Of a stretch of DNA of 32,000 nt, positions 778 through 32,000 are shown in pieces. This stretch comes from Spiroplasma endosymbiont of Antitype chi (GTDB lineage Bacteria > Bacillota_I > Bacilli_A > Mycoplasmatales > Mycoplasmataceae): assembly GCA_964019725.1 (NCBI GenBank), contig OZ026467.1, positions 1,606,794 through 1,638,793 of the forward strand, given 5' to 3'. A program made the position numbers and the translations under genes. The notes under the pieces are model-generated. The model was not told the DNA's origin. It saw only the letters and a program-made list of their open reading frames with translations, and made no database searches. Within the stretch, counting starts at the first letter, position 1. Each line of letters opens with the position of its first letter.

Positions 778-2092
778 CTAAATACTTAAATTTTGAACTT
801 TAAGAACTTCAACTAAATTATTTTTATTAATTACAATATTTTTCATTTCTTTATTATTTTTCATATTCGTTTCACTATTAGTTTTAATCATTGAAGCAGT
901 TAATAAATTATTAAAAGTTAATTTATTATAAATTTTGCCTCCTCTACCTTTAACACTTTTTGCTTTCGAAATATCACCTTCCATATGACAACCAATATTA
1001 TTAGAAAGAATTTGATTACGAATACCTTTTTCATTATTTTTAATATATTTAATTGTTTTTAATAAATAACTTCGTTTATTTCCAACAATATATGGCAAAA
1101 GAGAAATTAATAAATCTAATAATTCATCATATTTGCCATTATAAAAATAGTGTTTTGCTACATTATATTTTATTTCTTGCATTTTATTTCTTTTTCGATA
1201 TGATCATAAATGTTCAAATTTTTTAATTAAATGATACTTATCTAAACTTACATCAAGAATATTATTTTTAAATTCTTTCGCAATAGCATTAGCGATAGTT
1301 TCGATATAATTTGCACCATCACCCAAAACTAAAATCTTTGTATCTTTTTTAATATTATAACTATGCATTGCTTCAATAACTTTATTTGTAAATACCTTAA
1401 TATTAGTTAAATTTTTAATTTTATGTGGAATATTATTTATTTCGAAAACACCTTTTTTATTTTTAATTACTGGTCTTTTTTCGGTTGATTTTTCCTTATC
1501 AAACCCAGTATGTATACTAGAAATTAATATATGTTCTTTTAATTTTTCTTTGGTTTTATCATCTCGCATAGTTTGAAATGTACCATCTGCTTGAACATAT
1601 ATAGTATCTCCAGTAATATCTATTTTATTACTTTGATTAATATGAATATAGTCAATTTTATCTAAATCAACATTCTTATAAATATTTGATATTGTCATAT
1701 TGCTAACTTTTGAATCCGCAACTGTATCTATAACATCATTATATCTTTTTCCATCACCCATAAATGATAATATTTTTTCTCGTAATGAATTTTCTGTTCT
1801 TTGTCATTTTTTAATTTCCAAATATTCGTCTAACAAAAAAAACAGATACTTTTCTTTTTAAAATTTCATCAAAATAATAATATCTTCTTCGAGGAATAGT
1901 TACACGGCATCTTTTTGTTATTATAGTTTTATTTCTTTTTTCTTTTATTTTATATTTTTGATATTCTGGATTTTATTTTGTCATTTTAAACAATTCATCA
2001 TCTTTTTCAATTAATTTTTTAGTAATATCTTCAACATATTTTTTATCATTTTCTTCTTCAGCATCTTTAAAAAAATCGATATTTGTAATCAT
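778..2092 (-). pseudogene. ISLre2-like DDE transposase, disrupted
   Basis: Track ORFs 1204-1761 and 778-1182 join in-frame across TGA 1204-1206. Motifs RRRYYYFDE, LLDEYLEI, YVQADGT, LVLGDGANYI and IGCHMEG look like ISLre2/UPF0236 transposases. The N-terminal part (ATG 2090-2092, SD GGTGG near 2103) has an in-frame TAA at 1973-1975 and sits in a different frame from the body (shift near 1830-1860). Confidence 0.55.
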
Positions 2093-2173
2093 TTTAGCAT
2101 TTCCACCTTCTAATTATTATCAAATAATACTCACACACTAACTCTGCTTTAAATATTTGTCAAGGTTAGTAAT

Positions 2174-2202
2174 AAAAAAAACAAGATTAATAATAATCTT
2201 GT
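2174..2202 (-). terminator. rho-independent terminator
   Basis: 9-bp stem acaagatta/taatcttgt (2181-2189 / 2194-2202) with a 4-nt loop, followed on the minus strand by U7 (A7 at 2174-2180 on plus). Confidence 0.6.
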
Positions 2203-2447
2203 AATAGATAGGAGGTGGCAATAATTAAATATTATTAACTATCTTAATTTTTATTAAAACAAACGGCTATGGTTATCGCCGCATATGCCAAATTATATAT
2301 TCTTTTTTTCTGTCATATTACTTACTTAATCTAGCAAGGATTTTGTATATATAGGTAATACCCACTTTCGCATGACTTTATGCCAACCAGCTTCAAGAAA
2401 CTTTTTAATTCCCATTCAACAAATAGGACTACATCTTTGAATCTTGT
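2174..2447 (-). ncRNA. candidate ~270-nt transcript bounded by its own promoter and terminator (ncRNA or 29-aa peptide mRNA)
   Basis: It lies between promoter 2454-2482 and terminator 2174-2202. It is locally GC-enriched (for example ggcatatgcggcgataaccatagccg). The only ORF is 2326-2415 (MGIKKFLEAGWHKVMRKWVLPIYTKSLLD), which lacks an SD. Confidence 0.25.
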
Positions 2448-2453
2448 TTTATA

Positions 2454-2482
2454 TAGATACTGTCATTAAAATATAATATCAA
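2454..2482 (-). promoter_or_regulatory. sigma70-like promoter, copy a of a conserved module
   Basis: Minus strand: TTGATA (2477-2482), 17-nt spacer ending AATGACAG, then TATCTA (2454-2459). Confidence 0.45.
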
Positions 2483-2693
2483 ATAAAAAAGGTAGCATAA
2501 AAAAAGACAATTAACATTGTCTAAAAAAATAAATATGATATTATTAAATTAATTTAATAAATATAAGGAATGATAAACCAACTATCACTCTATAATATAA
2601 TTATAACATAATTATTATGTTTATCAATAAAAAAAATAGAAATTTAAATGGTTATAATCACTTTTTTAATTAAATTAAGGAGGTGAAAAATAC

Positions 2694-2891
2694 ATGAATA
2701 AAAATAATTAAAATAATTTAGATTTAATTTTAAAAGAAAATAAGGGATTAAAAGAAAGAATATTTTTATTAAAAGAAGAATTTAAAAAATATACAAATGA
2801 TACAAATATTATATTATCTGAACTTGAAGATATAGAAACATTAACAAATAAAGTGTGTAGATGTATGGGAAATAGAATAAATAGGAGTTAA
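2694..2891 (+). pseudogene. small coiled-coil ORF interrupted at codon 6
   Basis: Strong SD AAGGAGGTG at 2678-2686 and ATG at 2694. In-frame TAA at 2709-2711, after which the frame stays open for 59 more codons to TAA 2889-2891. Confidence 0.4.
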
Positions 2892-2946
2892 AAAAATAAT
2901 ATTAATTGCTTGTTAGTATTTTATTTTATAAATAAAAATAGTTTAA

Positions 2947-3117
2947 TTAAACTATTTTTTTACTTATTTCCAAAAATTCAATAGCATCATCAATATTATT
3001 AACTGTTATAGAAATTGATATTGATTATTTAACCTTATTATAATTTTTTTCAACATTAAAATAACCTTTATCGTTTGAGTCATTGATTTTTTTTATTTTT
3101 AAATCATTAATTTTCAT
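2947..3117 (-). pseudogene. small ORF interrupted by in-frame TAA
   Basis: SD AAAGGAG and ATG 3115-3117. TAA at 3025-3027, then 25 more open codons to TAA 2947-2949. A hairpin plus U-run follows. Confidence 0.4.
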
Positions 3118-3934: not shown

Positions 3935-4549
3935 TTAATTTTTTTTATTTTCTTTTTCTCTATTTTTAAGTTCAAAATATGAATCAATAAATTCAATTAA
4001 CGCTATTATTGGATCTTCTAATTTTTTACAAATCTTATTAATTTCATTAATTCTGGTTTTACTTAAAGAACTAAAATCAATTTCTTGTTTTAAAAATATT
4101 TCTTCTTTCTTTATATCTTGAAATTAATTAACTGTATCAACTAATTTTTTATTTTCTTCTTTTGTATCTTCAAAATCAAGTTTATCAATTATTTCAGAAA
4201 ACCCCAACGCTTTAATTGCCAATTTGTAACTTTTTTTATAAAGTTCTAAATATTTCTCTACTTTTTTATTTAAATCACTAGTATTTATTTTATTTAATGG
4301 TTTATTTTCAAAACTTTGATAATTTTTAACCATTTTTTCATGTTGTTTTTTAAACATTCTCTCTAAACTTTTTAAATTTGCTTTTCTATCCTATTCAATA
4401 TATTTTATATTTTCTGATTTTTCCATTTCTTTTAATGCTTGTTCTGCCATTCCTTTAAATTCACATTTTCTACAAAAGAAAAATTCATTATAACCAGTCA
4501 TATCTTTTTGTAAATCTTTCTTTTTATACATCTCACAAATTTTATACAT
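3935..4549 (-). pseudogene. hypothetical 204-codon ORF with two in-frame stops
   Basis: ATG 4547-4549. A single frame runs to TAA 3935-3937, interrupted only by TAG 4391-4393 and TAA 4124-4126. It contains track ORF 4124-4357. Confidence 0.5.
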
Positions 4550-4617
4550 CTTTTATTCCCACTTTCATTTAATTTAACTAAATATTACCATTTATTCTAC
4601 ACTTATGCACATTAGAC

Positions 4618-4646
4618 TTGAATATATATATATATATATATATAAT
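4618..4646 (+). promoter_or_regulatory. promoter whose 17-nt spacer is a TA dinucleotide repeat
   Basis: TTGAAT (4618-4623), 17 nt of alternating AT, then TATAAT (4641-4646). It lies 39 nt upstream of the lipoprotein ATG. Confidence 0.5.
4622..4644. repeat. (AT)11.5 microsatellite
   Basis: 23 nt of strictly alternating A/T. Confidence 0.9.
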
Positions 4647-4684
4647 GTGACAGTATTCAAAAAAACAGAAGTGGGGCATATAAA

Positions 4685-5176
4685 ATGAAGAAATTACTAA
4701 GTATAATAGGAACAATTAGTTTAATTACTGGCGGAAGTAGCAATTTAATTGCATGTAATAATAATCAATTAACATCAGAAAAATTAACAGAATTAAAAGA
4801 GAAAAACAACAAAACTATAAATGGTAATAAATTAGAATGAATGGCACCACAAGAAAAACCATTTAATGCACTTGACGATAAATGATATGTAGTAATATGG
4901 CGTGGTAAGGAAAATCTTGAATGAAAAATTTTTAAGTTAAAAAATGATGAAAAAATAAGGCTTAAAAATGGCTTTAAATTAGTTCTTGATTATTATGGTA
5001 AAGTTGATGATCCTAATAAAATAAATTTAGTTTTTGATGCTGAAATCAATAATTTAAGAGCAAATGACCAAATTTGAACTAATAATAGTATTAATTTTAA
5101 ATCGGTTTATCGTTGAGATGGAAATTCTGAATCAAACACACCCAAAATTGATAATAATGGAAATATTATAGATTAA
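4685..5176 (+). CDS. surface lipoprotein (163 aa)
   Basis: MKKLLSIIGTISLITGGSSNLIAC is a signal peptide plus lipobox Cys. Open in code 4 (several TGA=W) to TAA 5174-5176. A diverged paralogue lies at 30791-31289. Confidence 0.85.
4853..5121. repeat. left arm of a perfect 269-bp inverted repeat
   Basis: Base-by-base reverse complement of 5373-5647, apart from a 6-bp tandem duplication in the right arm. Confidence 0.95.
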
Positions 5177-5202
5177 AAATGAACAATTAAGTTCATTTTT
5201 TT
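5175..5202. terminator. bidirectional rho-independent terminator
   Basis: Stem aatgaac/gttcatt (5178-5184 / 5191-5197), with an A-run before and T7 after. It lies between the convergent genes. Confidence 0.65.
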
Positions 5203-5314
5203 ACTTTAATTTTGTAGAAAACTCTTTATATTTCAATAAAAATTTAATTTTTATGGGTTTTGAAAAAAATTAATAAAGACTTCATCTAACAAATTATTTT
5301 ATATAAAATAATAT

Positions 5315-6442
5315 TTATTTGATTAGTTCAAAAAAATAAATAGTTTTTCCTTTTATATTTGGATTTTTTACACCATCTCAACGTCAACGATAAACCGATT
5401 TAAAATTAATACTATTATTAGTTCAAATTTGGTCATTTGCTCTTAAATTATTGATTTCAGCATCAAAAACTAAATTTATTTTATTAGGATCATCAACTTT
5501 ACCATAATAATCAAGAACTAATTTAAAGCCATTTTTAAGCCTTATTTTTTCATCATTTTTTAACTTAAAAATTTTTCATTCAAGATTTTCCTTACCACGC
5601 CATATTACTACATATCATTTATCGTCAAGTGCATTAAATGGTTTTTCATTTGGATAAACTTTTGTAAAATGTTCTATTTGATAAATACCGCTATTTTTAA
5701 TATATATTTCAAGTTCATTTAATTCTTGTGTTTTTCTATATTCTAAATTTGTTAAATAATTTTTAATATTTTTTAGTTGGTTTTGTTTTTCTTGTAATAG
5801 TTCTTTTTCTTCTTGTATTTTTTGGGTGATTATTAATAATTTTGATGGGTTATGAGTTGATTCCATTAAAAGTGGTAATAAATATGTACTTTCATCTTTG
5901 ATATTTTCAATAGTTTCAAGATCATAAATATCTTTTTTAAATTTTGCTTTAAAACTTATTAATGGAAATTCATAAATACCGTCATTTGGTTTTTGGTTTA
6001 AATTATCTTGGATTAATTTCGAAACAGTGTTAATTATTTTTATTTCGATGGGATTGCCAAATTCTTTTAATTCACCATTAATTATTTTTGCTTCTTTACT
6101 TAAATCCACTCTAATTACCATATAATAATTTTCATTATTTGCTACATAATCTTTATCTACAAGTAATTTGGTATTTTTTTCTAATTTAATAATACGACCA
6201 CAAACACTTAAATATAATTGCGAATTAAAAGTAAATTCAACACATCTATCTGTTATTTTATATGTATATTTTAATTTTTCACTTTCATTTTTGATTAAAA
6301 AACCTGTTGAATTTTTATATATAGTTTCACTATTAGGTAAAAGTTTTTTTGTTTGTTGTTTTAATAATAAATCGTATAATATTGCTTGGTCTTTCGCTAA
6401 AACAATATTGCCGTTATCAAATGTTATTTTTCTAATTCCCAT
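5315..6442 (-). CDS. tail fibre / receptor-binding protein 2 (375 aa) with a lipoprotein-derived C-terminal domain
   Basis: Track ORF 5615-6442 continues across TGAs to TAA 5315-5317. The N-terminal ~270 aa are paralogous to 7010-7630 (GRxxxxExNT, GIYExxLIS). The C-terminal ~90 aa are encoded by the inverted repeat. Confidence 0.75.
5373..5647. repeat. right arm of the inverted repeat
   Basis: Reverse complement of 4853-5121, with tcaacg duplicated in tandem at 5378-5389. Confidence 0.95.
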
Positions 6443-6454
6443 TTTTTATTTCCT

Positions 6455-6655
6455 TTATTTTTTGTCATTATCATTTTTGATTATTGTTTCTATTTTTTCA
6501 TTATCTAATTTATCGCATTCTTTTTTAATTTTATCTTTTAATTTAATTAGTAATTTATTAAATTGTGCTAGTAATGCGGGGATTCCTAGTGTTAATCCGT
6601 GAATAGTTCAGTATAGTATTCTTAAAAAGAATAGTTTAATTTTTTTATTTTTCAT
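6455..6655 (-). CDS. small single-TM protein, holin-like (66 aa)
   Basis: ATG 6653-6655 overlaps the upstream stop. Open in code 4 to TAA 6455-6457. Hydrophobic segment: WTIHGLTLGIPALLA. Confidence 0.55.
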
Positions 6656-7010
6656 TTTTATTATCTCCTTGTTTATGTTTGATATTTATTTCGTTGTTGT
6701 TTGATAATTTGTTGTTGAAATTAACAGTCATAATATCTAGTTTTGTTTCAATTCGCAAAATGGATAATTGAATTTCGCTTTTTAATTCGTTAAATTCTTT
6801 AATGTAAATATTATTTATATTTTGTATATTTGTTATTTCTTTGTTGATTGTTTTTAATTCGCTTTTAATATTTTCATTTTCTTTTTGTAAATTAGCACTT
6901 TGTTCTTTAATATTTTTATTTTTTTTATTTAATAACACCGCAATAGTTCCAGTTCCTCCACCAGTTAATAATGATAATATAATTGCAAATATTTCAAGTA
7001 CTTGTTCCAT
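6645..7010 (-). CDS. N-terminally membrane-anchored coiled-coil protein (121 aa), possible holin or lysis factor
   Basis: Intact track ORF with SD AAAGGAG. TM segment VLEIFAIILSLLTGGGTGTIAVLL. Confidence 0.7.
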   Translation of the reverse strand: MEQVLEIFAIILSLLTGGGTGTIAVLLNKKNKNIKEQSANLQKENENIKSELKTINKEITNIQNINNIYIKEFNELKSEIQLSILRIETKLDIMTVNFNNKLSNNNEINIKHKQGDNKNEK

Positions 7011-7630
7011 TAAACATTAAATCTCCTTTTAATATTAATAATTTCATTATTTATTCGTGTTTCTAAATCTTTTGCTTTTTGATCAGTATTATTAATTTCA
7101 TTGTTTATTTTTTCATATTCTTGTTTAATGTTTTTAATTTCAGTTATATTTTTAGTTAATTGATTAATTTCAATGTAATTTAATAATTCTTTAATATTTG
7201 TAATATTATTTGATGTTGCTTGATAACTAATTAATGCTATTTCATAAATGCCATTTTCTTTATTGATTAGATTGTCATTTTGTAAATTTGGACTTGATCC
7301 GTTATTGTATTTAATTTCTAAATTAACTGGATCAGATTGTCCTAAATTAACTTTTATTATTACATATCCTTAATAAGTTTCATTTGGATTACTGGGTTGA
7401 ATTAATTCTATTTCTGTATTTTCTTCAATTTCTAATAATCTGCCATAAATTAAAATATAGTTTTGATTAAAAGTTATTTTGTTATTATTTTGCGTATAAA
7501 GTACTTTTTCATTGTTTTTAATAATCCCCGCTTTATTTTCTGTGTTATTTGATAAAAAATAATTTTGTATGTTTGCGTCATCTACGGATTCAATATTATG
7601 ATTATTAAATGTTTTTCCTACGACTGCCAA
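7010..7630 (-). pseudogene. tail fibre paralogue 1, interrupted by one TAA
   Basis: SD GAGGTG and TTG start at 7628-7630. In-frame TAA at 7370-7372. The same frame then stays open for 119 more codons to TAA 7010-7012, checked codon by codon. Confidence 0.6.
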
Positions 7631-7658
7631 TTTTATTCACCTCATTTGGTCGTGTGTC

Positions 7659-7687
7659 ATCATACCGTCATTAATTAAAATTGTCTA
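7659..7687 (-). promoter_or_regulatory. sigma70-like promoter, copy c
   Basis: Minus strand: TAGACA (7682-7687), 17 nt ending AATGACGG, then TATGAT (7659-7664). Confidence 0.5.
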
Positions 7688-7693
7688 TTAAAA

Positions 7694-9202
7694 TTAAATA
7701 TTTTTTGTTTTTAACATATCAATAAAATTAATTCTTGCTTTGCCAAATAATAAATGAATAGTGTTTTTGTTATTTTCATATTGAATTGCAGATAATATTG
7801 TTTCATATTATTTGTTATTAAAATATAAAATAAATTTATCACCTAATTTTATTTTGTTTAAATCTAAAATATTTGTATTTTTACTAATATCAAATTCTAT
7901 TGAATGTGAATATTTGCTTTGTTGTAATTCTTGTTTAGCATAATCAAATATATTAATTTTTTTATCTAATTTAGCAGTTTTATTTATAATTGGTAAAATT
8001 CTGTTTTTAATATCATTTTTATTTTTAATATTTTCAATATATTTTTTAACATCCGCTAAATTTTTTAATTCTATTTGTAGTTCTGTTATAAATTTTTTTA
8101 ATTCTAAAAATTCATTTCAATTTAAAATGCTATATTTTGCTATTTCATTTCAAGTATTTTCATTATTTGGAACAGAAAATAAAAATTGTCTCATTAGTTG
8201 TGGTTTTAAATCTTTTAAAATTTCTTTATCTGTTTCACTAATACCAGTATCTCTATAACCTGTTTCTTCTTTAACATAAAAATTTCATAAATTATTTTCT
8301 TTTTTTAATTTAAAACCATCACCTCATTTTAACTTTGTTCCAATCGGAAAATTTTTAATTAATTCTAGTGTAATTTTTTCTTTTTCAAAGGTAAATTTTA
8401 TTTCTTTTGAAATTTTATTTCAAATATTTAAAATATTATTTCAATTTTCCAATGTTTTATTATTAATAATTTCATTATTTTTAAGTAAATACCAACTTTC
8501 TTTAAAGTTATTATTTTCATCATAAATATCTAATTTATTAATTAATTGTTTATAAAAGTCATCTATTTTCAAATTATAAATATTATTAATGTTATCTTTT
8601 AAATAATAATTTTCGTTATTTGGTGAATTAAAAGTTATATTAATTTTTTTATTTTTTATGTCTAATTCAAAAGATACATAATTTTTTGTTTGGTCATAAG
8701 CGATTTTATAAAAATCAAATAAACTTATTTCTATTTCATTTTTATTAAAAAAAGTAAACTTGGTTGTTGCTGTTTTATCAATTAATTTTAAGTTATTTTC
8801 TAAAAAATCGTTTAAAAAATTATCTTGATTAAAATAATCTTTTATTTTTTCTTTAATTAATACAGCCATGTCACGGTCAACTATATTTTTAACTAATATT
8901 TTAAAATCAAATATTCCAATTATTGATTTACAACTAACTATGCAAGATTTATTTTCTTTAATATTTTCGATATTTGTTATTATTCCTAAATATATTTTTT
9001 GATTAATATCATTATTTATATAAACATAATCACCAATAACAGCGTTTATATTATTTTTACTTAATGTAAATTTTGAAACTTGTAAAACATAAATATCTTC
9101 ATAAATATTATACTTTTCAACAATACTATTATCTTTAAAGTTTAAATTAATTTATGAAAAAATATTAATATTAAGATAATTAGACTGATAAATATTCTTC
9201 AT
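7694..9202 (-). pseudogene. large tail/baseplate protein (Tal-like position), two in-frame TAA
   Basis: ATG 9200-9202. One frame of 502 codons runs to TAA 7694-7696, checked codon by codon. The only interruptions are TAA 9152-9154 and TAA 7808-7810. Contains track ORF 8441-8869. Confidence 0.6.
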
Positions 9203-10079
9203 AGTATTTTATTTCTAAACTCCCCGCTAATTTTGATTTTGGTAAATCATTAAAGTATTTAATTTTATATTCTCCTATTGGTATTGTAAAGAATGTATTT
9301 AAATTAAAATATTGTTTTTCGTAAATATTAATTTCTTGTTTAACTTTATTGTTTTTATCTTTAATAACTTTTATAATTTTTTGATTTTCGATAGTTGTAT
9401 TAATAATAATTGCTTCGTTTTTCTTGATTGTTTCATAAATTTTACATTCGCTAATTTCTTTATTATCTTTAAGAAGTTTTATATGTGGATTTATTGATTC
9501 ACCATTTATGATTATTTCGCCTTTTGCTGGTAAATCACTATTATTTTTTATTTTCTTTGTTTGATCATAAATACTTGTGTATTTAAATGCTCCAAATTTA
9601 TAATTATATTTTTTTCCGACACTTGTATCAATAATTAATTCTCACTCAATTTGAATTTCTTTTTTTCAATTAGAAACTTGTTCTAAAATAAAATCAATTT
9701 CTAAATTATTGAATTGGTTTAATTCATTTTTACCAATATTTTTAATATATACATCACAATAATATTCATTATAGTTATTATTATATGTAACACCATAAAT
9801 TAATTTTAATGATTCAGAGTTAGCAAGTTCCTATTTTATTTTTTCAATAAAATCACGATATTTTTGATATGCGTTAGGGTTTATAAACAATAATTTTAAG
9901 GATAATTCATTTAATACTTTTTTATTTGATTCTAAAATAAAGTTATTTTTAACATTTAAAAAAGAATTATTAAAACCAACGCCAAGATTATTAAAAGAAA
10001 TGGTTAATATATCACTAGTATTTTGTAAGTCAATAATTTCATTATTACTTGTTTTTAATTTAAATGTTCTAACTATCAT
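9180..10079 (-). pseudogene. distal tail protein (Dit-like), one in-frame TAG
   Basis: Track ORF 9831-10079 ends at TAG 9831-9833. The same frame continues for 216 codons to TAA 9180-9182. The position directly after the tape measure fits Dit. Confidence 0.55.
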
Positions 10080-10085
10080 AAAATG

Positions 10086-11994
10086 TTAACTCCTATTTAT
10101 TTTATTTCCCATTTGTGTAAGAATTTGATTTGTTGCTTCTTCAATATCCATATTATTTGAAATATTAAAATTATTATTAAATGTATTACTATTATTTATA
10201 TTTTTTGTATTAAGAGTTGATTGTTGTAATGCTGGTTTTTGAATTTCTGGTAATGATGGGATTTGAACATTTACTAATCCAAATGTTAAATATTTTAGCC
10301 CTGTTAATACTTTATTTATTAGTCATATAATACTATTTAAAATTTTAATTAAAAAATTAAATGGAGGTATTAAAAAAGTTATAATTGCTTTTCCAATCTT
10401 AGCAAAATAGATGCTAATCCATTAAATAATGTAAAAATTGGTTTTAAAATTGGCATTAATGCTTGAAATAAATTTTTAAGTAATTCAATAACTGGAATTA
10501 ATAATTGTTTACAAATATTCCCTAATTATTTTAATAATTCTTTAAATTCTTCATTTTGGGCTAATAAAGGTACTAATAAAGCACCAATAATACTTATTCC
10601 TATTCTCCGGATTGCACCCATTGAAGATGGTAACCCCAAAAAAGCTGTTTTTAATAAATTGATGGTGTTTATTAATAAACCTCCAATAGATATTAATTTT
10701 CCGAATATTAATACAGTGGGTGCCATAACTGTTAATATACCTAAAATTTTAAATATTAATTCTTTTTGGCTAACACTTAATGAATTAAAAGTATCAGTTA
10801 TTTTTTTAATTGAAGGTATTAAATCACTATCAATAAAATTAACAAACTTTTCAAAAATAGGGAATAAACCTATTGCTAATTCCATTTTTATTATTGATAG
10901 TTTTTGTGTTAATTCATTTCATTTATTACTTAATTCTGTCATTTTTTTAATATTTTCATTTGAAATTAATGTTAAATTTTCAAAATTATTAGTTAGATTT
11001 TTTATTTCCTAATTACTTTTTAATAATAACGGGGCAATTTTACTACCTAATTCATAACCAAAAATTTTAAAATAAAGTTACTTTTTTCTGTTTTATTTGT
11101 TATTTTAGATAGTGCATTTTTTGTTTCTAAAAAAATAGTTTCAGTATTTTTTAATTCCCCACTAGTATTTTTAATATTAATTCCTAATTGTTGAAATGCA
11201 TCAGTACTTTCATTGAAAATGCCTTGTGACAATTCATAGTTTGTTTTATTTAGTTTTTGAAATAAAATTTCAATATTTTCAGTTTCTAAACCAATCTTTT
11301 TAGCAATAAATCTAAATTTTTGTAAATTATCAGTTGAAATATTAATTTTTTGTGCTGTTTTATTTAATTCTTCACCAAATAAAATCGTATCTTTTGTTAT
11401 TTTTCCTAAAATAGCCTTAATACCAATTAACGGTATTGTAATATAAGCACTTAATTTTTTACCTATATCTGATAATTTGTTTCCAAATTTAATAAATTTA
11501 TCGCCACTTATTTTAGATAGTTGTTTGTTAGTTTCTTTTAAGTCGCTATTAAACTTAATTATATTACGATCAATTCTATCAATAGTTAAATTTGTAAATT
11601 CATTTTCCCTTGGTATTGCATTAAATTTCTTTTGTAATTGAGATAATTCAACATTTAATTTTTTAATTTGTTTTTCATCTGTTCCATTTTTAATTGCTAT
11701 TTCAGTTTTTTTAATTTGATTTAAATATTCTTTTTGATTTTTTTGTAATTCATTTATTTTATTAATTAATTGCTGTTTTTGTTTTAGGGTATTTTCAATA
11801 TTTTTGTTATATTCAACAATTTTATTTCTTAAATTATCAAGTTCTTTGCCATTTTTAAATTTTAAATTAGCATAAAGATTAGCAAGTTTTCGATTTGAAA
11901 GATTAACAGTATCGGCTAATTTTTTGACTTCTGTATTTATATTTGATAAATTTGTACTAATTTCAAGATGAATTCCTTTGATTTGTTCTGCCAT
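10086..11994 (-). pseudogene. tail tape measure protein, multiply disrupted
   Basis: ATG 11992-11994 lies behind SD GGAGG. The N-terminal part is coiled-coil, followed by hydrophobic helical repeats (track ORF 10526-10885). Lesions: frame change near 11050-11090, TAG 11009-11011, TAA 10526-10528, and a frame change near 10400-10420. Confidence 0.7.
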
Positions 11995-12000
11995 TAAATT

Positions 12001-12554: not shown

Positions 12555-13430
12555 TTAAGAATTTTTAATTACAACATCAATCGGATTTGTTTGACCAATA
12601 GCATTATTTTTACCTTCAATTTGAACTTCTACAGTTTTATCATTTGTCATATTAATTGGTCAGTATTCACCTTTACTTTCAATAAAGTAATCAAAATCAC
12701 TCTCGGTTAAAGAACTATTTACTGCTTTTACTGCTTTTAAAACAACAGCTTTAAATTGTGGTTTTAACTGTTCTTGTGTTGTACTTGCTGCGTTTGTGAC
12801 ATGAATGATTGGTTTCTCTATTTTATTAATTTTACTAATATTGATTTTAATTATTTCAGAATGTATTTCACTATTTTCTTTATATACTTCATTAAATCAA
12901 CTATTAAAAATATTTTTATTAGTATTTTCACTAATATAACTTTTAATAATATTATCTTCTGCTCTGGGCAGGGAATTAAATTCAAATGAATAAGTATCTG
13001 CTTCAACATTTTCATTTTTTGTATTGTGTGTTTCATTAGAAATTTTTAAATTAACTCGATAAAGTCATATTCTTCGTTTTTCAGTGTCACCATCAATTTC
13101 AAAACCCAATGCCATTTCTTTTGGTTGAATATTTGATTTTTCAAATCTAATATTATTTTTATCTTTTATTAATCCAAAAATTTCTTCTAAAAATGTATCA
13201 CTTGGTTTAATAATAGTTAATGTTCCAGTATAACCTTGATTAGAATGAGCAATATAATAGGGAATATTATCAGCATAAATAGTAGTTGTATTTTCAGCAA
13301 TATTTAACGCTAAACTGGTAGCACCTTTAATTATTTTTGGTGTTTCATAACTGATTTTATTATCTATTGTTTTAATAATTGCATAATGAACATTTGAAAG
13401 TCCAAACTCAATTAAATTATCTTTGTTCAT
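12555..13430 (-). CDS. major tail protein (phi13/TP901-1-like), 291 aa, intact
   Basis: Track ORF 13065-13430 continues across TGA. The length of 876 nt is in frame to TAA 12555-12557. The RRIWLYRV region and gene position fit a major tail protein. Confidence 0.8.
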
Positions 13431-14849: not shown

Positions 14850-16715
14850 TTACTCTCTTACTACATTAACAAATGATCATTTTGCGACAGTATTTCCATC
14901 GGCAATGAATGTTGCTTTGTATGCGATTAAATCTTGATCAAAAAAGAAGTCTGTTTATTTAGTAATGTTTAATTGTTTTTGAAAGTTTCATTTATATTGA
15001 CTTAAATCCCCAAATGTTATAAATGTTGATTTTTCTGTTTCTGAATATTCTGGATATTCATCACATAAAATAACATCATAACCAAAAATATTGTATTTTA
15101 ATGTTTCATCACTTTTTGTGTGGTTTCAAATTGGTCTATCATTTTTATCTTTAATTGCTTGAATTTGTGTAAAGAAAGTAGATTTATTCATAATAAACTT
15201 AGCATTATTATGATAACCAGTTGGAAGTAAAGAAATAATTTTTTGAATTGTATCATAAGAAATATTTTTTTCAGTTTGTGCTAATTTATGTTTAAGAATA
15301 TTAGTATTAGTAATTATTCCTTGTGGTTCAAGTTTTGCAGATCCTTGTCCTTTTGCAATAGCATATTCAATAGCATTTTGTACTTCTATTGCTAAACTAT
15401 CAATAATAAACTTTTCAAAATTATCTATTGTAATTGCTTCTGCACTTTCTGAAATAGTTATCATTGTTCCTCATCTATATCCATTTAATTGGATTGATTT
15501 AAAATCAAGTTTTCCAGTTAATTTTTCACCTTCTTTGCTTCATTTTCCGCCAACATTCTCATCTTTTTTAATAGCAAATTTTAAAAAACCATCAATATTT
15601 GAAACTGATACATTTCTAATTAAATCAGATGTACCTTGTAATTTTGCAATAATACTTTCTCATATTGTTGTTGGTACCAATGGTGAAGCATCTTGGTTTC
15701 CGTTTGAATTTGTTCCGATTTGTAAAAACTTAGTTTCTTGATTTGTTAATTTTTTGTGTTGTAATTTTTTTAATCAAGCATTTTTATATTCTTTTGATTT
15801 TAGAACATCGTCAGTATTTTGTAAAATACTTTTATTTTCATAATTATTATAATTATAAAAGTTTTCAATATTCCGAGATTTTTCTGGTTGTTCTGTTTGA
15901 TTATCTTCAATAACTTCCTGTTCAATTTCATTTTTAATCATTTCTAAACGATTAAATTCTGTTGTAATTTCATTAATTTCTTTAACAAGTTCTTTAACTT
16001 TTTTTACATCTTCATCGGATACATCTGCTTTTGTTTCAATATTTTTTTTTAAAAAGTTTAATTCTTCTTTTTTTATTAGTTTTTGATTTCTTAATTCTTT
16101 TAATTTATCATTTAAATTTTTTGTCATTTTGTTATTTTCATCTCCTTGCAAAATTTCTTCTATTTCTAGATTTAATATTTCTTTTTGTAAAATATTAAAA
16201 TTATTAGTATTTTTACTTTTAATTTCTTGCACCTCACTTTTTGGGTTTGCACCTAATGGAACTAATGAGACCTCATTTACTTCAACTTGTTTTAAGTATC
16301 TAACAATATTTCCTTTAATTTCCTTATCTTCTGTTTCTATTGTTGTATATCCTATGCTTAATTGCATCGGTCTATTGCTTTTTTGCATTTGTTTTGAAAT
16401 TTCATATACTTCTTTTCCAACCGTAATATTTGTATTAATTTGCATTTTAGCTCATAATCCATCTTTTTTGCTTTCTAAGTATGCGATTCCAATTGGATTT
16501 TTATGTTCATGACCCCATAATAATGGAACTGCTGGTGTATTTTTTATAGTTTCAATAAAACTATTTTCATCAGTAATGTCACCATGATAATCAACAACAT
16601 TATATTTATTAGCAATTCCGATTATTTCTTTAATGCCATCGTCATTTGTTTGTATAATATTTTTTACTTTAAAATTAATTTTTTTATTAATCTCGTTATT
16701 AATTGTTTTGTTCAC
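14850..16715 (-). pseudogene. fused prohead protease - coiled-coil scaffold - HK97-type major capsid protein (621 codons), one TAA 35 codons before the end
   Basis: Track ORFs 16452-16715, 15774-16445 and 15126-15464 are all in one frame, joined only by TGA codons (checked codon by codon). In-frame TAA at 14955-14957. The frame continues to TAA 14850-14852. Confidence 0.75.
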
Positions 16716-17898
16716 TTTTATCTCCTATATTTTTATTTTTAAGTTGTTCTCTTTCTTGCCAATCATAATTTTTTGTCATTCCATAAATATCTAATCCTTC
16801 AACACTTTCATATCCCTCTTGATTTCTAACTTCATTTGGTGATAAAACACTATGCTCTAACATTTTTGCGTAATATGCTGTTTTATCTTGTAAATTTCCC
16901 AATAATACTCGTTTTGCTGAAAATGATATATAGTTTCCTAATTCTAATTCTTTTTTGCTGAAAATTTTAAAACTAAATTCTTGTTCTCATTGTGTTAATA
17001 ATGGTTGAATAACAGAACTAACATAACCTTGATACTGCTCTGGACTATATTTTCCATTAACAATTTCAGAAGCAACATTATAAAATTTATAAATATTATT
17101 TCGATATTGTTCCATTTGTTCTTTATTTAAGTTAGAAATATTACAATCTACTTCTTGAAAATCTAGACCATTATCTAAAATGGCAAAACCGCGATATTTA
17201 TTTTGTAAATTATTATCTACAAATTCTTTTAATTTTTCTTGTAATTGTTCTGGGGCAACTATATTATTAACTTTTAATATACCTTTTAAATTACCTGATT
17301 GTTTTAAATTATTAATTGAGGAATTAATCATCTCTTCTAGTAATTTTGTTGAATATTCTAATGATTTATTTGGAATTTCTCAGAATAATCCTTTATTATA
17401 AAATTTTCGTAAATGTATTAAATCATCATATGGTAATACTAAATTTGTGTTATTTAAATAAAACTTTATAAAATATTGATTATTTTTATCGAATAAAATT
17501 TCTAAAAAATCATACTCAATAGTAATTAAAGAATTAATTTTTTCATTTTCTCATTGAATATAAATAAAAGTATTTCCTTGTAAAAACAAATTGGTTGTTA
17601 TTTTATAATAAAAATCATAAGCACTCATCCCCGAATTTGGTCTAACATTTAATAAATATTTTAAATTATATTTATTTGTAGTTTTAATATTTTCTTTTTC
17701 GACACATTGTGGTATTGCTTTTAACTGGGCAATATCACTCGCTATTCGATTAATTGTACTTTTAACAACATCAATTTCATAATTATTAGTAAAATTTGAT
17801 AAAAAAGTTTTAAAGTCATGATTAATATACATAAAATTTTGTTTTTTGGATAAATTATTATTTATTGTTTTTTGTTTTTTCTTAAATCACAGAGCAAT
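16699..17898 (-). CDS. portal protein (HK97 family), intact
   Basis: Track ORFs 17551-17832, 16987-17331 and 16699-16902 are in one frame, joined by TGA. SD AAGGAGGG at 17905-17912 points to an ATT start at 17896-17898, with ATG 17830-17832 as the alternative. Confidence 0.85.
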
Positions 17899-18002: not shown

Positions 18003-19704
18003 TTAATCATTAAAATTTTTCCCGATATCTGTTTGATAAATTTTAAAATGTTGTTCATTATTTATATACATTTTATAAGCAAATAATAGTGCCATAAAAC
18101 CATCAATTCTTTTGCGTGAACTTTTTTTAATTGGCATAATATTTTCTTTACTATCTGTTATAAGTTTTGTGTTATCTAAATTTCATTTAAAAATAGGGTG
18201 ATTATTATAAATAATTTTATCATCATAAAATAATGGAGCAATCGATTTTATTAATGGTGATATTGTATATATACCATTTGTGACAATTTCTGTTCTATTA
18301 GAAAAACTGTTTTGTTCTAATTTTTCTTTTATATAATCTGCATAATATCTATCATATCCAATTTTTACACAAATTAAATTATATTTTTTAATAGTTTCAA
18401 TAATATAATCAATTATTTCATCTCTATTTACAGCGGATCCAAGTGTAAAAGTTATGTATCCTTGTTTTTCTCAAACAGAATATAAAACTTTGTCTTCTTT
18501 TTCATTTTCATATGCTCTTTCTCGGGGAATAAAAAAATGTGGCAAAATAAAAAACTCACCAGTTTTTTCGGGTATTAAAATTACAACAGCAGTTAAGTCC
18601 ATTGTTTGTGATAAATCAATACCAACAGTACAGTATTTATTTTTTAAATAATCTTCTAAATTAACATTTTTATTATTTTTTTCTTGTAAATATCCAAAAT
18701 TAAATAATGAAGTTTCTTGCAGAGAAGCAATATTACAATGACGAGTTAAAAAACTAGGTTGTTGTAATGGCTGGTTAATTGCTGTTTCTCATTCTTCTTT
18801 TAACTTTTCAATATTTTTAGAAATACCAAGATTTGGATTTGCTTTATATATATTTTTAAATTTTTTTCATTCATTAAAATTATCTAATTCATATATTCAA
18901 GGTAAAAAATTATCGTTTTGATAAATATTATTTAATACTTTTTCATCATATTCATATCTCTCATCATAAATGCTCTCACGAGTACTTCCACTTGTTGTAA
19001 TTAAAAGCATTAATGTATTTTTTCTTTTTGATGTTGCTGATTTAATAACATCATATAAGTCTCTTTTTTTCATAGCCACCAATTCATCTAAAATTACTAT
19101 ATATGGATTTAAACCATCTAATGTTTTATCTTCTGATGCTAATGGTTGAAAATGTGATCAATCTCTTAAAAATTCTATTTTATCCCTTGTTATTTTTAAT
19201 TTACTATTTAATCATTCTTCCTGTCTAATCATACTTTTAACTTCATCAAAAATAATTTTTGCTTGTTCTTTTTTTTGTTGCAACTGTATATATACTTGCC
19301 CCTTTTTCGTTATCTAATAACAAACATTTTAAAACAATAGCAGATGCTAGGGTTGATTTACCATTCCCTCTACCAACAACCAATAATGCTTCTTTAAATC
19401 TGCGAATATTAGTTTATTTTTCGTAAAAACCAAATAATGCTTCTATAAATGCTTTTTGTCATAATTCTAATTTAAAATTTTGTCCTGCATATTCACCAGT
19501 TGAAAGATGACAAAATCTTTCTATAAAAATTATTGCACCACTTGCTTGTTTTTTATTAAAATAAAACCTTTTACTATTTTTTAATTCATTAACTAAATTA
19601 GATACTATCTTTTTAATTTTCAAACAAACAATATCTTCGTTTTTTTTAATTCACTCATTATATAATTCTAAATTAGTTTTATTATTTATCGTTTTTTCAA
19701 TCAT
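18003..19704 (-). pseudogene. terL: terminase large subunit, one TAA plus one homopolymer frameshift
   Basis: Walker A VVGRGNGKST, ILDE, and a nuclease half containing track ORF 18897-19082. ATG 19702-19704. In-frame TAA at 19414-19416. The frame changes at T8 19269-19276. Stop TAA 18003-18005. Both frames were checked codon by codon. Confidence 0.85.
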
Positions 19705-24993: not shown

Positions 24994-25827
<834 letters not shown>

Positions 25828-25828
25828 T

Positions 25829-26651
25829 TTAAATCTCCTCTTTAAAATTTGCACTATTTTTAAAAAATAGTGCTTTTGCATCTTGTCATTCTAAATTTAA
25901 TTTAGTTGTTATTTTAAAATTAATTCTTTCAATTCCATTTTCATTTATAATTTAAATTTCGCCTTTATCAGCAACATTAATACCATTGGCTTTTAATAAA
26001 TGTGCATATCCCGTAATTTGTAATTGTGCCATTTTAATTTTTTTAAGTTCAACATTTTTTCAAGTTTTAAAATCAACAACAATAGCATTATTATTTTCCA
26101 TATAAACCAAATCGGGTGTACCACAAATTAATCCATCTGAAATTGGTTGTTCTATTATTGCTATAATTTTTTTAAATTCTTTTTCAATTTTTTTAATAAA
26201 ATTATTAAACTTTTTTATTAATGGAAATAATTCTTTAATTTCATTATATTCAACATTTAATAATTCTAATATTTGATTGATATTGTTTCGTGAGTTTTCA
26301 TTTTTAACACAATCGTATAATATTCTTGATGCAAATTCATGAATAATATTTCCCCTAATTATTGCTTTATTAAAATATGCAGAACCTTTAATATCAGAAT
26401 AATTTGTATTAAAATAATTAGGTCGCATGTAAAAAATAAGGGTTTTTATTTTTAAATGTTATTTAGTTTAATATAAATTAAGGATATTTTTTTATTGTTT
26501 TTATAAAACCCTTATTTTTTACATGCGACCAATAATTATTAACTATGAGTGTAACACTTGGCAAAAATTTATTATTAAATTTATATCTATGTTCATCTTT
26601 TCAAAATTAAGCTTCATATTTTAAATTAATATTTTTATCAATAAATTTCAT
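25829..26651 (-). pseudogene. Cas4/RecB-like PD-(D/E)xK exonuclease, split by a MITE and two TAA
   Basis: ATG 26649-26651. N-terminal motif HRYKFNNKFLPSVT. GTPDLVY...VVDFKT is a D...DxK motif (track ORF 26060-26428). TAA at 26607-26609 and 25952-25954. A 110-bp insertion occupies 26421-26530. Stop TAA 25829-25831. Confidence 0.65.
26421..26530. mobile_element. 110-bp MITE-like element with 26-bp perfect terminal inverted repeats and an 8-bp target-site duplication
   Basis: TIRs ggtcgcatgtaaaaaataagggtttt (26421-26446) and its reverse complement (26505-26530). It is flanked by aataatta at 26413-26420 and 26531-26538. In-silico excision restores ...SVTLIVNNYFNTNYSDIKG... in frame. Confidence 0.8.
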
Positions 26652-27324: not shown

Positions 27325-27831
27325 TTAATTCTTCCTTTCGTTATTTACTATTATTATTTTTAATGTTATAAAATATAAAATTGGTAAACATATTGTATTT
27401 GTAATTAATATTCCGATAATTATTTGTTCTATACTTAAAACTCCAAGATTTAATCAAAAAAGAATAAAATCAATCGGAAGATAAATAATTATGTTTGATA
27501 ATAAAATAAGAATAATTTTAATAATATGATTTATTTTTATTCAATTAATTAGTTTAATTAAAATCGCCAATAAACCCGTACCAATATTTCAACATAATGA
27601 TCCCAAAGTAAAACCTCATAATGTTAAATCAGATAGAAAATGTCCCATAAATCCAATTAAGAAACACCAATATCAATTTAAAATAAATCCGCTTATAAAA
27701 ATGGGAATTAAAAATAATGGAATTGATGTTCTTGAAATAATTTGTATTCGCATTACTTGTGATAATACAATTATTATCGCAATTAAAACTGCCACATAAT
27801 TAATTTTTTTAATTAATTGAAAGTTATTCAT
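27325..27831 (-). CDS. multi-pass membrane protein, 168 aa (ECF-transporter S-component-like by size and topology)
   Basis: ATG 27829-27831. Open in code 4 (7 TGA) to TAA 27325-27327, checked codon by codon. It has 5-6 hydrophobic segments. Confidence 0.7.
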
Positions 27832-30790: not shown

Positions 30791-31289
30791 ATGAAAAAAA
30801 ATATTAAGTCTTTTGGGAACAATCACTTTAATAGGAGCAAGTACAACAAGTTTAGTTGCTTGTAATACATCGCAAGAATATACAAAAGAAAAATTATTAC
30901 AATTAAAATCAAAAAACAATATAATAACAAAAGGTGGTATTTTAGAATGAATATCAACGCAAGAAACACCATTTAATAAAGTTGATAATAAATGATATTT
31001 TGTAATATGAAAAGGTAAAAATAAATATCATTTAAACAAATTTAAAAATATTGCGCACAAAGATGAACTAATATTTAATGATGGTACTAACCACCTTTAT
31101 TTAAGATTAGACGTTGATTTTAATTTGTTATATGTATATGAAACTTATCAAGGAAAAGAAACTAAGTTATATTATTGAAAAAATAAAAATGATGATTATA
31201 TTAAATCTGTTTATAATTGAAATGGTAAAGAACAAAATTTACCTGACTTAATTGTTGATAATGATGGTAATGTAAAAGTTAACGGATAA
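30791..31289 (+). pseudogene. lipoprotein paralogue, out of frame at an A8 tract directly after the ATG (phase-OFF or pseudogene)
   Basis: ATG 30791 is followed by A8 at 30794-30801. With A7 the ORF reads MKKILSLLGTITLIGASTTSLVAC... to TAA 31287-31289. The total length of 499 nt is 3n+1. It shares the LEW..PFN..D.KWY.VIW.GK and SVY.W.G motifs with 4685-5176. Confidence 0.7.
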
Positions 31290-31405: not shown

Positions 31406-32000
31406 TTATACTTCCCCGTATGAAATAGGTGTTTCATATTCGGTTGTACCTCAATATCGAATATCTCCATATCCCTCAACTCCTAATAATTTGGGAATTA
31501 TACTTTTTGATATTATAATTTTTAATTTCATATTATTAGTATAATATACCTGAAGTTTAGTTTCTTTAATTTTATCGTTATCATTATTATATAATTTTGT
31601 TATTTGCAATAATAAATAAATAAACGCTTCACCTAACTTAGTTTTATATTTAGTTCTATATTCTTTATTTATTAATCCATTAGTATAATCAGCAGCAACT
31701 GTTTGAATATAATTTACTCTTATATTATCAGTATATAAAGTTATTTTATTATTAAAATTAACTTTATCAACTTGTTACATTCCTTGTGTCTATATTTTTA
31801 CACAATCCAAATTACCTAAATAATCTGAACACCCCGTTATACCAAATAAAATTTCAACATTTCTATTAGGAATAAAATTTTCTATATTTAGTGGTTCACA
31901 TTCAACTTGTAAATTACTTAGATTACTTATTTCAATTGTTTTATAATAACTAATAAATTTATCTATACTTTGAATGATTGGGTCAATTTGTTTTAAGTCA
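31406..32000 (-). pseudogene. 3' part of an unknown ORF (continues beyond the window) with adjacent in-frame TAG and TAA
   Basis: A single frame is open (code 4) from 32000 to TAA 31406-31408, except for TAG 31790-31792 and TAA 31775-31777. Confidence 0.45.

Follow-up and report, generated by a model that had tools for sequence, protein, structure and literature searches.

We describe a pair of convergent genes that share one hypervariable protein module as a near-perfect inverted repeat whose arms evolve in concert. The pair lies in a 32,000-nt stretch of the genome of the Spiroplasma endosymbiont of Antitype chi (GCA_964019725.1, contig OZ026467.1, forward-strand positions 1,606,794–1,638,793), which we call the window and whose own coordinates are used below. 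One gene encodes a small lipoprotein, and the other, fibB, encodes the terminal tail-fibre-like protein of a siphovirus-like prophage. We are highly confident of the descriptive claims, namely the anatomy of the locus, the pairing of the two genes and the concerted evolution of the segment they share. The full statement, which adds a function, is that a receptor-binding protein and a cognate exclusion lipoprotein share the module and are kept alike by non-crossover recombination; we give it slightly less than an even chance of being right.

Anatomy of the inverted repeat

TGA is a sense codon in the window, which points to genetic code 4, as in Spiroplasma (G+C content 20%), and both genes are open reading frames (ORFs) under that code. 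The lipoprotein gene (4685–5176, plus strand) encodes 163 amino acids (aa) and is identical to database protein P0019. Its product consists of a signal peptide with a lipobox cysteine (...NLIAC24), a short helical linker and the beta-rich shared module; the Mollicutes lipoprotein signal NF038029 (LP_plasma) matched residues 1–24 with 35.4 bits, against a cut-off of 24. The fibB gene (5315–6442, minus strand; 375 aa, exact match to database protein P0001) encodes an N-terminal beta domain, a coiled coil of ∼50 residues and a C-terminal copy of the module.

A blastn self-comparison aligned 4853–5116 with 5384–5647 in inverted orientation, over 264 bp at 100% identity without gaps. The only difference between the arms is a 6-bp tandem duplication in the right arm (tcaacg twice, at 5378–5389), which adds Arg-Trp. 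With this duplication allowed, the left arm spans 4853–5126 (274 bp, plus strand) and codes for lipoprotein residues 57–148, and the right arm spans 5368–5647 (280 bp, minus strand) and codes for fibB residues 266–358. The self-comparison and direct reading bore out the original prediction on both the near-perfect repeat with its single duplication and the contents of the arms, a lipoprotein body and a fibre-like C-terminal module in convergent genes. The next longest inverted repeat within 4000–8000 measured only 30 nt at 77% identity, so the main repeat is far beyond chance.

The spacer (5127–5367) measured 241 bp, 10 bp less than the 251 bp first reported, and the lipoprotein gene contributes its last 16 codons and stop to it, fibB its last 17 codons and stop; the rest is non-coding DNA. 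Directly after the lipoprotein stop, an AT-rich hairpin followed by a U-run (5175–5202, plus strand; −8.4 kcal/mol, z −3.3) is likely an intrinsic terminator; none of 200 shuffled sequences folded as well, and a stricter consensus terminator scan missed it. RNA folding gave no convincing terminator structure after the fibB stop, where the consensus scan also returned none. The terminator had been proposed as bidirectional; of that proposal, the one hairpin on the lipoprotein side stands.

Upstream of the lipoprotein gene, a consensus scan marked a putative promoter (TTGAAT-17-TATAAT; 4618–4646, plus strand; 10/12 matches) whose 17-nt spacer is a (TA)11 microsatellite (4622–4644). Elsewhere, promoters with a microsatellite spacer give phase-variable expression. 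We rejected the (TA)n repeat as a general feature of the system, because it occurs in the window copy only and is absent upstream of the orthologous genes at other loci. On the strand opposite to the late operon, the lipoprotein genes are preceded by ribosome-binding sites of their own and by AT-rich DNA.

Recurrence in other Spiroplasma loci

Other Spiroplasma associated with insects encode homologues of fibB, as do S. citri and S. phoeniceum, there at ∼30% identity. We compared 18 loci encoding such homologues, and all of them except one (L002) have a convergent lipoprotein gene downstream and an inverted repeat to the 3′ part of the fibre gene. They comprise loci of insect endosymbionts (L001, L003 and L009), of S. 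phoeniceum (L004–L007), and of the S. citri chromosome and plasmids (L010–L018). Across loci the arms measure 216–314 bp at 96.4%–100% identity. Those of the endosymbionts are 99.1% identical over 217 bp (L001), 99.5% over 221 bp (L003) and 100% over 216 bp (L009); those of S. phoeniceum, 97.0% over 265 bp (L004), 99.6% over 277 bp (L005, with L007 the same) and 96.4% over 277 bp (L006); and those of S. citri, 97.6% over 290 bp (L010–L015), 99.65% over 288 bp (L016, L017) and 97.1% over 314 bp (L018). The spacer is ∼750 bp long in S. citri and S. phoeniceum, with two small membrane-protein genes inside. Fibre-profile scans of viral and metagenome contigs gave no further loci.

A second partner protein, of the P0011/P0018 type, is unrelated to fibB and carries the module in mid-protein, with ∼190 further residues after it. 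It is paired with a convergent lipoprotein remnant in L004 (96.6% over 238 bp; arms 15871–16107 and 16789–17026, within region 15670–17302) and in L019 (97.7% over 266 bp; region 5845–7488). This protein probably comes from another type of tailed phage, whose genes lack PHROG annotation.

The exceptional locus, L002 (8764–8925), belongs to the Spiroplasma endosymbiont of Polydrusus pterygomalis. Relative to its sister copy L003 it has lost 591 bp from the center of the repeat at a 7-bp microhomology, which fused the arms into a quasi-palindrome and destroyed both genes. Because the deletion is nearly symmetric, we take it that the arms interact physically.

An assembly artefact, which the original prediction had named as one outcome that would undo it, is very unlikely, since assemblies made independently for S. 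citri, S. phoeniceum and four insect endosymbionts show the same geometry.

Concerted evolution of the arms

At least nine clearly different module variants were found among 11 independent pairs, which come from several Spiroplasma lineages and involve the two unrelated partner proteins. In an 11 × 11 matrix of partner arms against lipoprotein arms, identity was 96.1%–100% on the diagonal and 41%–91% (median 63%) off it. The best match of each arm was its own neighbor, in both directions and in 11/11 pairs; lipoprotein and fibre variants co-vary.

Two finer comparisons gave the same picture. Three prophage copies in S. phoeniceum P40 are ∼90%–100% identical over the stretch that runs from the fibre gene up to the lipoprotein start, except for two mirror-image islands of ∼220 bp each at 40%–65% identity, which are exactly the two arms. 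In L001, L003 and L009, which share one variant, 21 of the 25 variable columns are the same in both arms of a locus and different between loci; substitutions that arose since these lineages split have therefore been copied into the other arm. A very recent duplication is ruled out by the pairing across variants together with these mirrored substitutions. The comparisons indicate that the arms evolve in concert and are neither a fresh duplication nor an assembly artefact. Ongoing gene conversion, a conjecture when first put forward, is now a demonstrated pattern in the matrix, the mirrored substitutions and the islands of divergence.

The behavior is familiar from much larger inverted repeats, those of plastid genomes and the palindromes of Y chromosomes, which undergo concerted evolution. 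As in these, the Spiroplasma arms are alike within a genome and diverge between lineages, with mismatches at the edges and occasional central deletions. The plastid and Y-chromosome repeats duplicate whole genes, whereas the Spiroplasma repeat covers one hypervariable module in two otherwise unrelated genes.

The few mismatches within loci involve bases of every type and fall at arm edges, within the conserved frame motifs. They bear on a rival explanation, templating in the manner of a diversity-generating retroelement (DGR), in which a receptor-binding gene has, at its 3′ end, a variable repeat that is rewritten from a template repeat. A second tip-coding copy does stand beside a receptor-binding-like gene here, as in mtd of Bordetella phage BPP-1. 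However, the arm mismatches are not adenine-specific, both copies are coding, their orientation is inverted, and no reverse transcriptase appeared among the Pfam matches of the window ORFs scanned. We regard the probability of this explanation as negligible; the mismatch spectrum excludes it.

An inversion switch with the logic of Mu G, P1 C or a shufflon would use crossing-over between the arms to flip the spacer, swap 3′ tips and terminators between the two genes, and so produce two states. The Mu G and P1 C segments likewise have inverted repeats in tail-fibre coding sequence with an oppositely oriented coding segment adjoining, and long inverted repeats inside convergent coding sequences are a substrate of such systems (PMC9881135). 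In the window and in S. citri the tails of the two genes beyond the arms differ, and a flip in the window would exchange tails of 16–17 residues. Against this, spacer orientation is constant in all loci compared. These include 11 copies from S. citri and S. phoeniceum, in which a flip would put two genes in the opposite orientation. The arms of L003 and L009 extend up to the stop codons, and a flip there would change only two residues, "WN". In Mu G and P1 C the repeats are short, an invertase is dedicated to them, the two alternative C-termini differ, and a population contains both orientations (PMC9881135), whereas the Spiroplasma loci have arms of 216–314 bp, much longer than typical recombinase sites, two copies that are the same, and one orientation seen.

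The statement that no invertase is visible held up: we found no serine or tyrosine recombinase among the window ORFs scanned, which did not include every small ORF. Near the repeat, a single gene resembles a recombinase, a DDE transposase-like gene of the Mbov_0401/ISLre2 kind at the prophage end (778–1761, minus strand; NF046004, 162.6 bits, cut-off 162), which is not of an invertase family. Homologues of this gene bearing PF06782 hold the equivalent position in the S. citri loci. Constant orientation and the little there is to exchange in L003 and L009 leave the proposed Mu G/P1 C-type inversion unsupported, and we consider such a switch very unlikely.

A neutral by-product is another reading of the concerted pattern: a single ancestral inverted duplication would have been homogenized mechanically ever since, with the lipoprotein serving an unrelated role, for example in interaction with the insect host. 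It would agree with the persistence of identity in a prophage that looks defective and in pairs of which one member is a pseudogene, with family lipoproteins that occur without a matched partner, and with the toxin cargo that adjoins the module, in a region typical of lysogenic-conversion genes. Yet two unrelated partner proteins show the arrangement, phages that diverged deeply have it in common, the shared part is exactly the hypervariable part, and all nine variants are paired. One ancestral accident would hardly yield such a pattern without selection for pairing, and on balance we find this reading unlikely.

The module and its family

The module of ∼90 aa has a conserved frame (EKPFN-VDNKWY-VVWRG ... 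YRW-G) around a hypervariable center. A similarity search returned 30 homologues at E ≤ 1e-3. An exhaustive profile search of 1.84 billion proteins returned 70 cluster representatives, mostly lipoproteins of ∼165 aa and a few larger proteins. Named matches in the homology searches were all from Spiroplasma. The module belongs to a Spiroplasma phage-associated lipoprotein/ORF1 family that is partly covered by PF12461 (DUF3688) and phrog_14869 (E 3.9e-5); the copy in the window has no match in the current Pfam release, and Pfam, PHROGs and PADLOC offered no functional name for either fibre or module. Domain searches and structure prediction, which the original prediction had proposed, brought matches to Spiroplasma lipoproteins and no known family or fold. 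For the lipoprotein, AlphaFold2 predicted a beta-rich structure of moderate confidence, with a predicted local distance difference test score (pLDDT) of 69, and the model is weakest in the hypervariable center.

The module also occurs in a plectrovirus, SpV1-R8A2B (L020, X51344). Its ORF1 (877–3024, 715 aa) has a signal peptide and a C-terminal membrane anchor and carries the module at residues ∼183–268 (profile match 197–266), in the exposed N-terminal half. A signal peptide with a C-terminal anchor is the topology of the adsorption proteins of filamentous phages. The SpV1 copy is of a short form ("NWKLI...YRWDG"), as are the fibre variants P0006 and P0007 and a 147-aa lipoprotein of L019. 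The homology of some family lipoproteins with SpV1 ORF1 was already implicit in precomputed Pfam matches. The module is found in three unrelated types of Spiroplasma virus, in proteins expected to be exposed, and such use would fit a receptor-binding role.

Lipoproteins of the family are further encoded in podovirus-like elements, namely S. poulsonii phage MaM-2019a, L008, L021–L023 and the right end of the window, and these genes lie tail-to-tail with late genes (in L008 and L022, one for a tail protein of ∼1,067 aa). The diverged family member reported at 30791–31289 (plus strand) exists and is the third copy of the module in the window, though its start is out of frame: the ATG is followed by an A8 tract, and with A7 the protein would read MKKILSLLGTITL.... 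The gene is either a pseudogene or subject to phase variation by slipped-strand mispairing. Tail-to-tail with it lies a fragment (31409–31774, minus strand) resembling the C-terminus of the 1068-aa tail protein of MaM-2019a, and we therefore read the right end of the window as the remnant of a second, podovirus-like prophage.

Variants of the module are common to several species, with sharp boundaries in the conserved frame motifs. The window variant was also seen in L019, in a lipoprotein encoded on an S. citri plasmid and in a fibre fragment of Spiroplasma sp. ChiS. The fibre genes of L003 and L009 end, up to the stop codon, in a C-terminal tail of the lipoprotein type, suggesting that lipoprotein sequence was copied into the fibre gene. 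As to the proposal that the phage captured a host lipoprotein domain, its direction of copying gains from these two loci; a host origin does not, the module being phage-associated everywhere it was found.

These features could also be read as signs of a cassette reservoir. The lipoprotein gene would be a donor that rewrites the fibre tip by conversion, identity would be the footprint of frequent conversion rather than a need, and exchange among many prophage copies and lipoprotein paralogues would, in a further step, change host range. The tails in L003 and L009, the sharp variant boundaries and the sharing across species all fit, as do the presence of several prophage copies and extra lipoprotein genes per genome, and of RecT. 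In the source genome, P0002, P0007, P0024 and P0025 represent other prophage copies, P0025 being a similar lipoprotein. Speaking against a reservoir, a lone donor with the sequence of its recipient keeps no diversity in store at the locus. This donor is, moreover, a complete gene with signal peptide, ribosome-binding site and promoter-like region rather than a silent cassette, and conservation between phages whose fibre N-termini are only ∼30% identical is left unexplained. We judge a reservoir to be an improbable account of the locus.

A possible tip-matched exclusion lipoprotein

We favor the explanation that the two genes at the end of the tail operon together form a specificity module. The original prediction had raised superinfection exclusion by a membrane-anchored copy of the tip, and this remains the best reading of function. 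Arms that are near-identical within a prophage and strongly different between prophages suggest, short of proof, that the lipoprotein blocks the receptor of its own phage. The lipoprotein gene directly adjoins the terminal tail gene in the window and in all class-A loci, with fibB as the presumed receptor-binding protein and the shared module as its receptor-binding tip. In the lysogen, the lipoprotein would be expressed from its own promoter and occupy the same receptor in the membrane of the wall-less cell. Occupancy would exclude superinfecting phages of the same specificity and would also spare progeny from loss on membrane debris and on lysogens. Podovirus-like elements, with their unpaired lipoproteins, could keep out heterologous phages using that receptor. 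Such a model explains why it is the hypervariable part that is shared, why the members of a pair constantly match, and why phages that diverged deeply have kept the arrangement.

The arms would be kept alike by non-crossover recombination, either gene conversion or replication template switching across the repeat. Candidate machinery for homogenizing them is encoded in the window by two phage recombination genes (24994–26428, minus strand), one for RecT (24994–25881; PF03837, E 1e-40) and one for a PD-(D/E)XK exonuclease (25952–26428; PF12705, E 1.6e-4), which may assist the process. S. citri has been reported to be without functional RecA, and a phage single-strand-annealing system is for that reason attractive as the agent. 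Only the inverted layout would be stable for two identical segments, since direct repeats would delete the spacer. In its most specific form, the model is one of prophage self-mimicry: a lipid-anchored copy of the fibre tip masks the receptor, and the inverted repeat acts as a copying device by which host range and exclusion switch together. We consider this form possible but doubtful.

Several observations weigh against the exclusion model. Close inverted repeats homogenize without selection, so the identity of the arms is not in itself proof of a need for identity, and one member is broken in several pairs (L001, L003, L019 and the second pair of L004). The window prophage itself looks defective: fibA, the paralogue of fibB (7010–7663, minus strand), is a pseudogene with an in-frame stop at 7370–7372, the tape-measure region (9183–12000) is split into several ORFs, and the large terminase is in two pieces of 96 aa and 409 aa (18003–19704). 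Gene order and architecture are what suggest a fibre role for fibB, whose structural model is of low confidence (pLDDT 58, with a helix at 199–249) and too poor to use. Receptor binding by the module is likewise suggested by position and hypervariability alone; no Foldseek match below E 0.1 was found for its fold in the PDB and BFVD, and no profile match for its sequence in Pfam, PADLOC or PDB sequences. Finally, neighboring genes of the podovirus-like elements L008 and L021–L023 contain no matching copy of the module. Self-mimicry cannot be the only role of the family, because these lipoproteins have no matched partner.

The surrounding prophage

Homologues of the genes in the window are from Spiroplasma. 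The minus-strand genes of the siphovirus-like prophage run in the order terminase, portal, protease-capsid, connectors, major tail protein and tape-measure fragments, followed by a Dit-like protein (an ORF without ATG in the window prophage), a tail protein, fibA, two small membrane proteins and, last, fibB. The fibA product resembles the first ∼160 residues of fibB (32% identity, E 8e-9), a shorter stretch of paralogy than the ∼270 aa originally claimed, and the gene is intact in L001. The small membrane-protein genes are o66 (6455–6655, minus strand) and o121 (6645–7010, minus strand; a weak Rz-like spanin match), and it is their homologues that lie within the repeat spacer in S. citri and S. 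phoeniceum.

The window major tail protein (12555–13430) and a structural protein of the unrelated element in L019 (1–787) have a nearly identical C-terminal extension of ∼90 aa (KPQFKAVVLKAVKAVNSSLTESDFDYFIESKGE...), which is, judging from these sequences, another module exchanged between Spiroplasma phages. In the early region of the prophage, next to a DNA methylase gene, a gene on the minus strand (27325–27831) encodes a membrane protein resembling the S component of energy-coupling factor (ECF) transporters (PF07155, E 1e-6), and it may be a cargo gene. Large toxin-like cargo genes lie directly beyond the lipoprotein gene, at the prophage end, in L001 (10437–14645), L003 (10601–14080), L009 (6586–10987) and L019 (8104–9312). 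The products in L001, L003 and L009 are Spaid-like, with a signal peptide, ankyrin repeats and an OTU domain, and that of L019 is a ribosome-inactivating protein (RIP; PF00161, weak match).

Comparison with known systems

The closest parallel is in coliphages. T5 and many other coliphages encode a superinfection-exclusion lipoprotein, Llp in T5, directly downstream of the receptor-binding protein (pb5), in cognate pairs, and equivalent receptor-binding/exclusion modules lie downstream of gpJ in other coliphages (PMC9586334). The Spiroplasma loci are like pb5/Llp in that a small lipoprotein gene adjoins the terminal, presumed receptor-binding gene and the specificity of the pair changes together between related phages. 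The proposed role, blocking of the phage's own receptor, would be the same. The differences are equally clear. Llp has no homology to pb5 and acts on FhuA from within the periplasm, whereas the Spiroplasma lipoprotein has the same module as the fibre tip; the Spiroplasma genes, unlike those of T5, converge, and the part they share is a near-identical inverted repeat. We detected no homology of the lipoprotein to Llp or Cor and, apart from the signal peptide, no match in Pfam, NCBIfam or PADLOC.

A second parallel comes from retroviruses, in which Env expressed from proviruses, a membrane-anchored receptor-binding protein, occupies the receptor and blocks superinfection. If the proposed analogy holds, a resident element would in both cases express a membrane-anchored copy of its own receptor-binding protein. 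Env interference belongs to eukaryotic viruses, and one gene product does both jobs there, whereas in Spiroplasma a separate lipoprotein gene carries a copy of the module.

The literature that we searched, in which subscription journals are incompletely covered, gave no account of a fibre tip and an adjacent lipoprotein sharing a module as a concertedly evolving inverted repeat. An expression study of S. citri lipoproteins left these "redundant viral" genes aside. The gene order is known from coliphages; a specificity module shared as an inverted repeat under concerted evolution is something we could not find described.

Implications for Spiroplasma and its viruses

Function aside, the locus is a clean natural case of concerted evolution limited to one hypervariable protein module. 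Self-mimicry, if true, would be the first case among phages in which exclusion works through a copied receptor-binding module, and it would put gene conversion between inverted repeats to a new use. If the exclusion model is true, a temperate phage would match its entry and exclusion specificities economically, with one binding module for both.

The model would also name a receptor-binding module for Spiroplasma viruses, covering siphovirus-like prophages, a second type of tailed phage and plectroviruses. We know of no receptor or adsorption protein for any Spiroplasma virus. In insect symbionts, male killing and protection stem from toxin genes carried by these prophages, which also drive genome rearrangement in the plant pathogen S. 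citri. Because they carry such toxin genes, with OTU/ankyrin and RIP genes beside the module itself, and rearrange the S. citri genome, knowledge of their host range and mutual exclusion would be of practical value.

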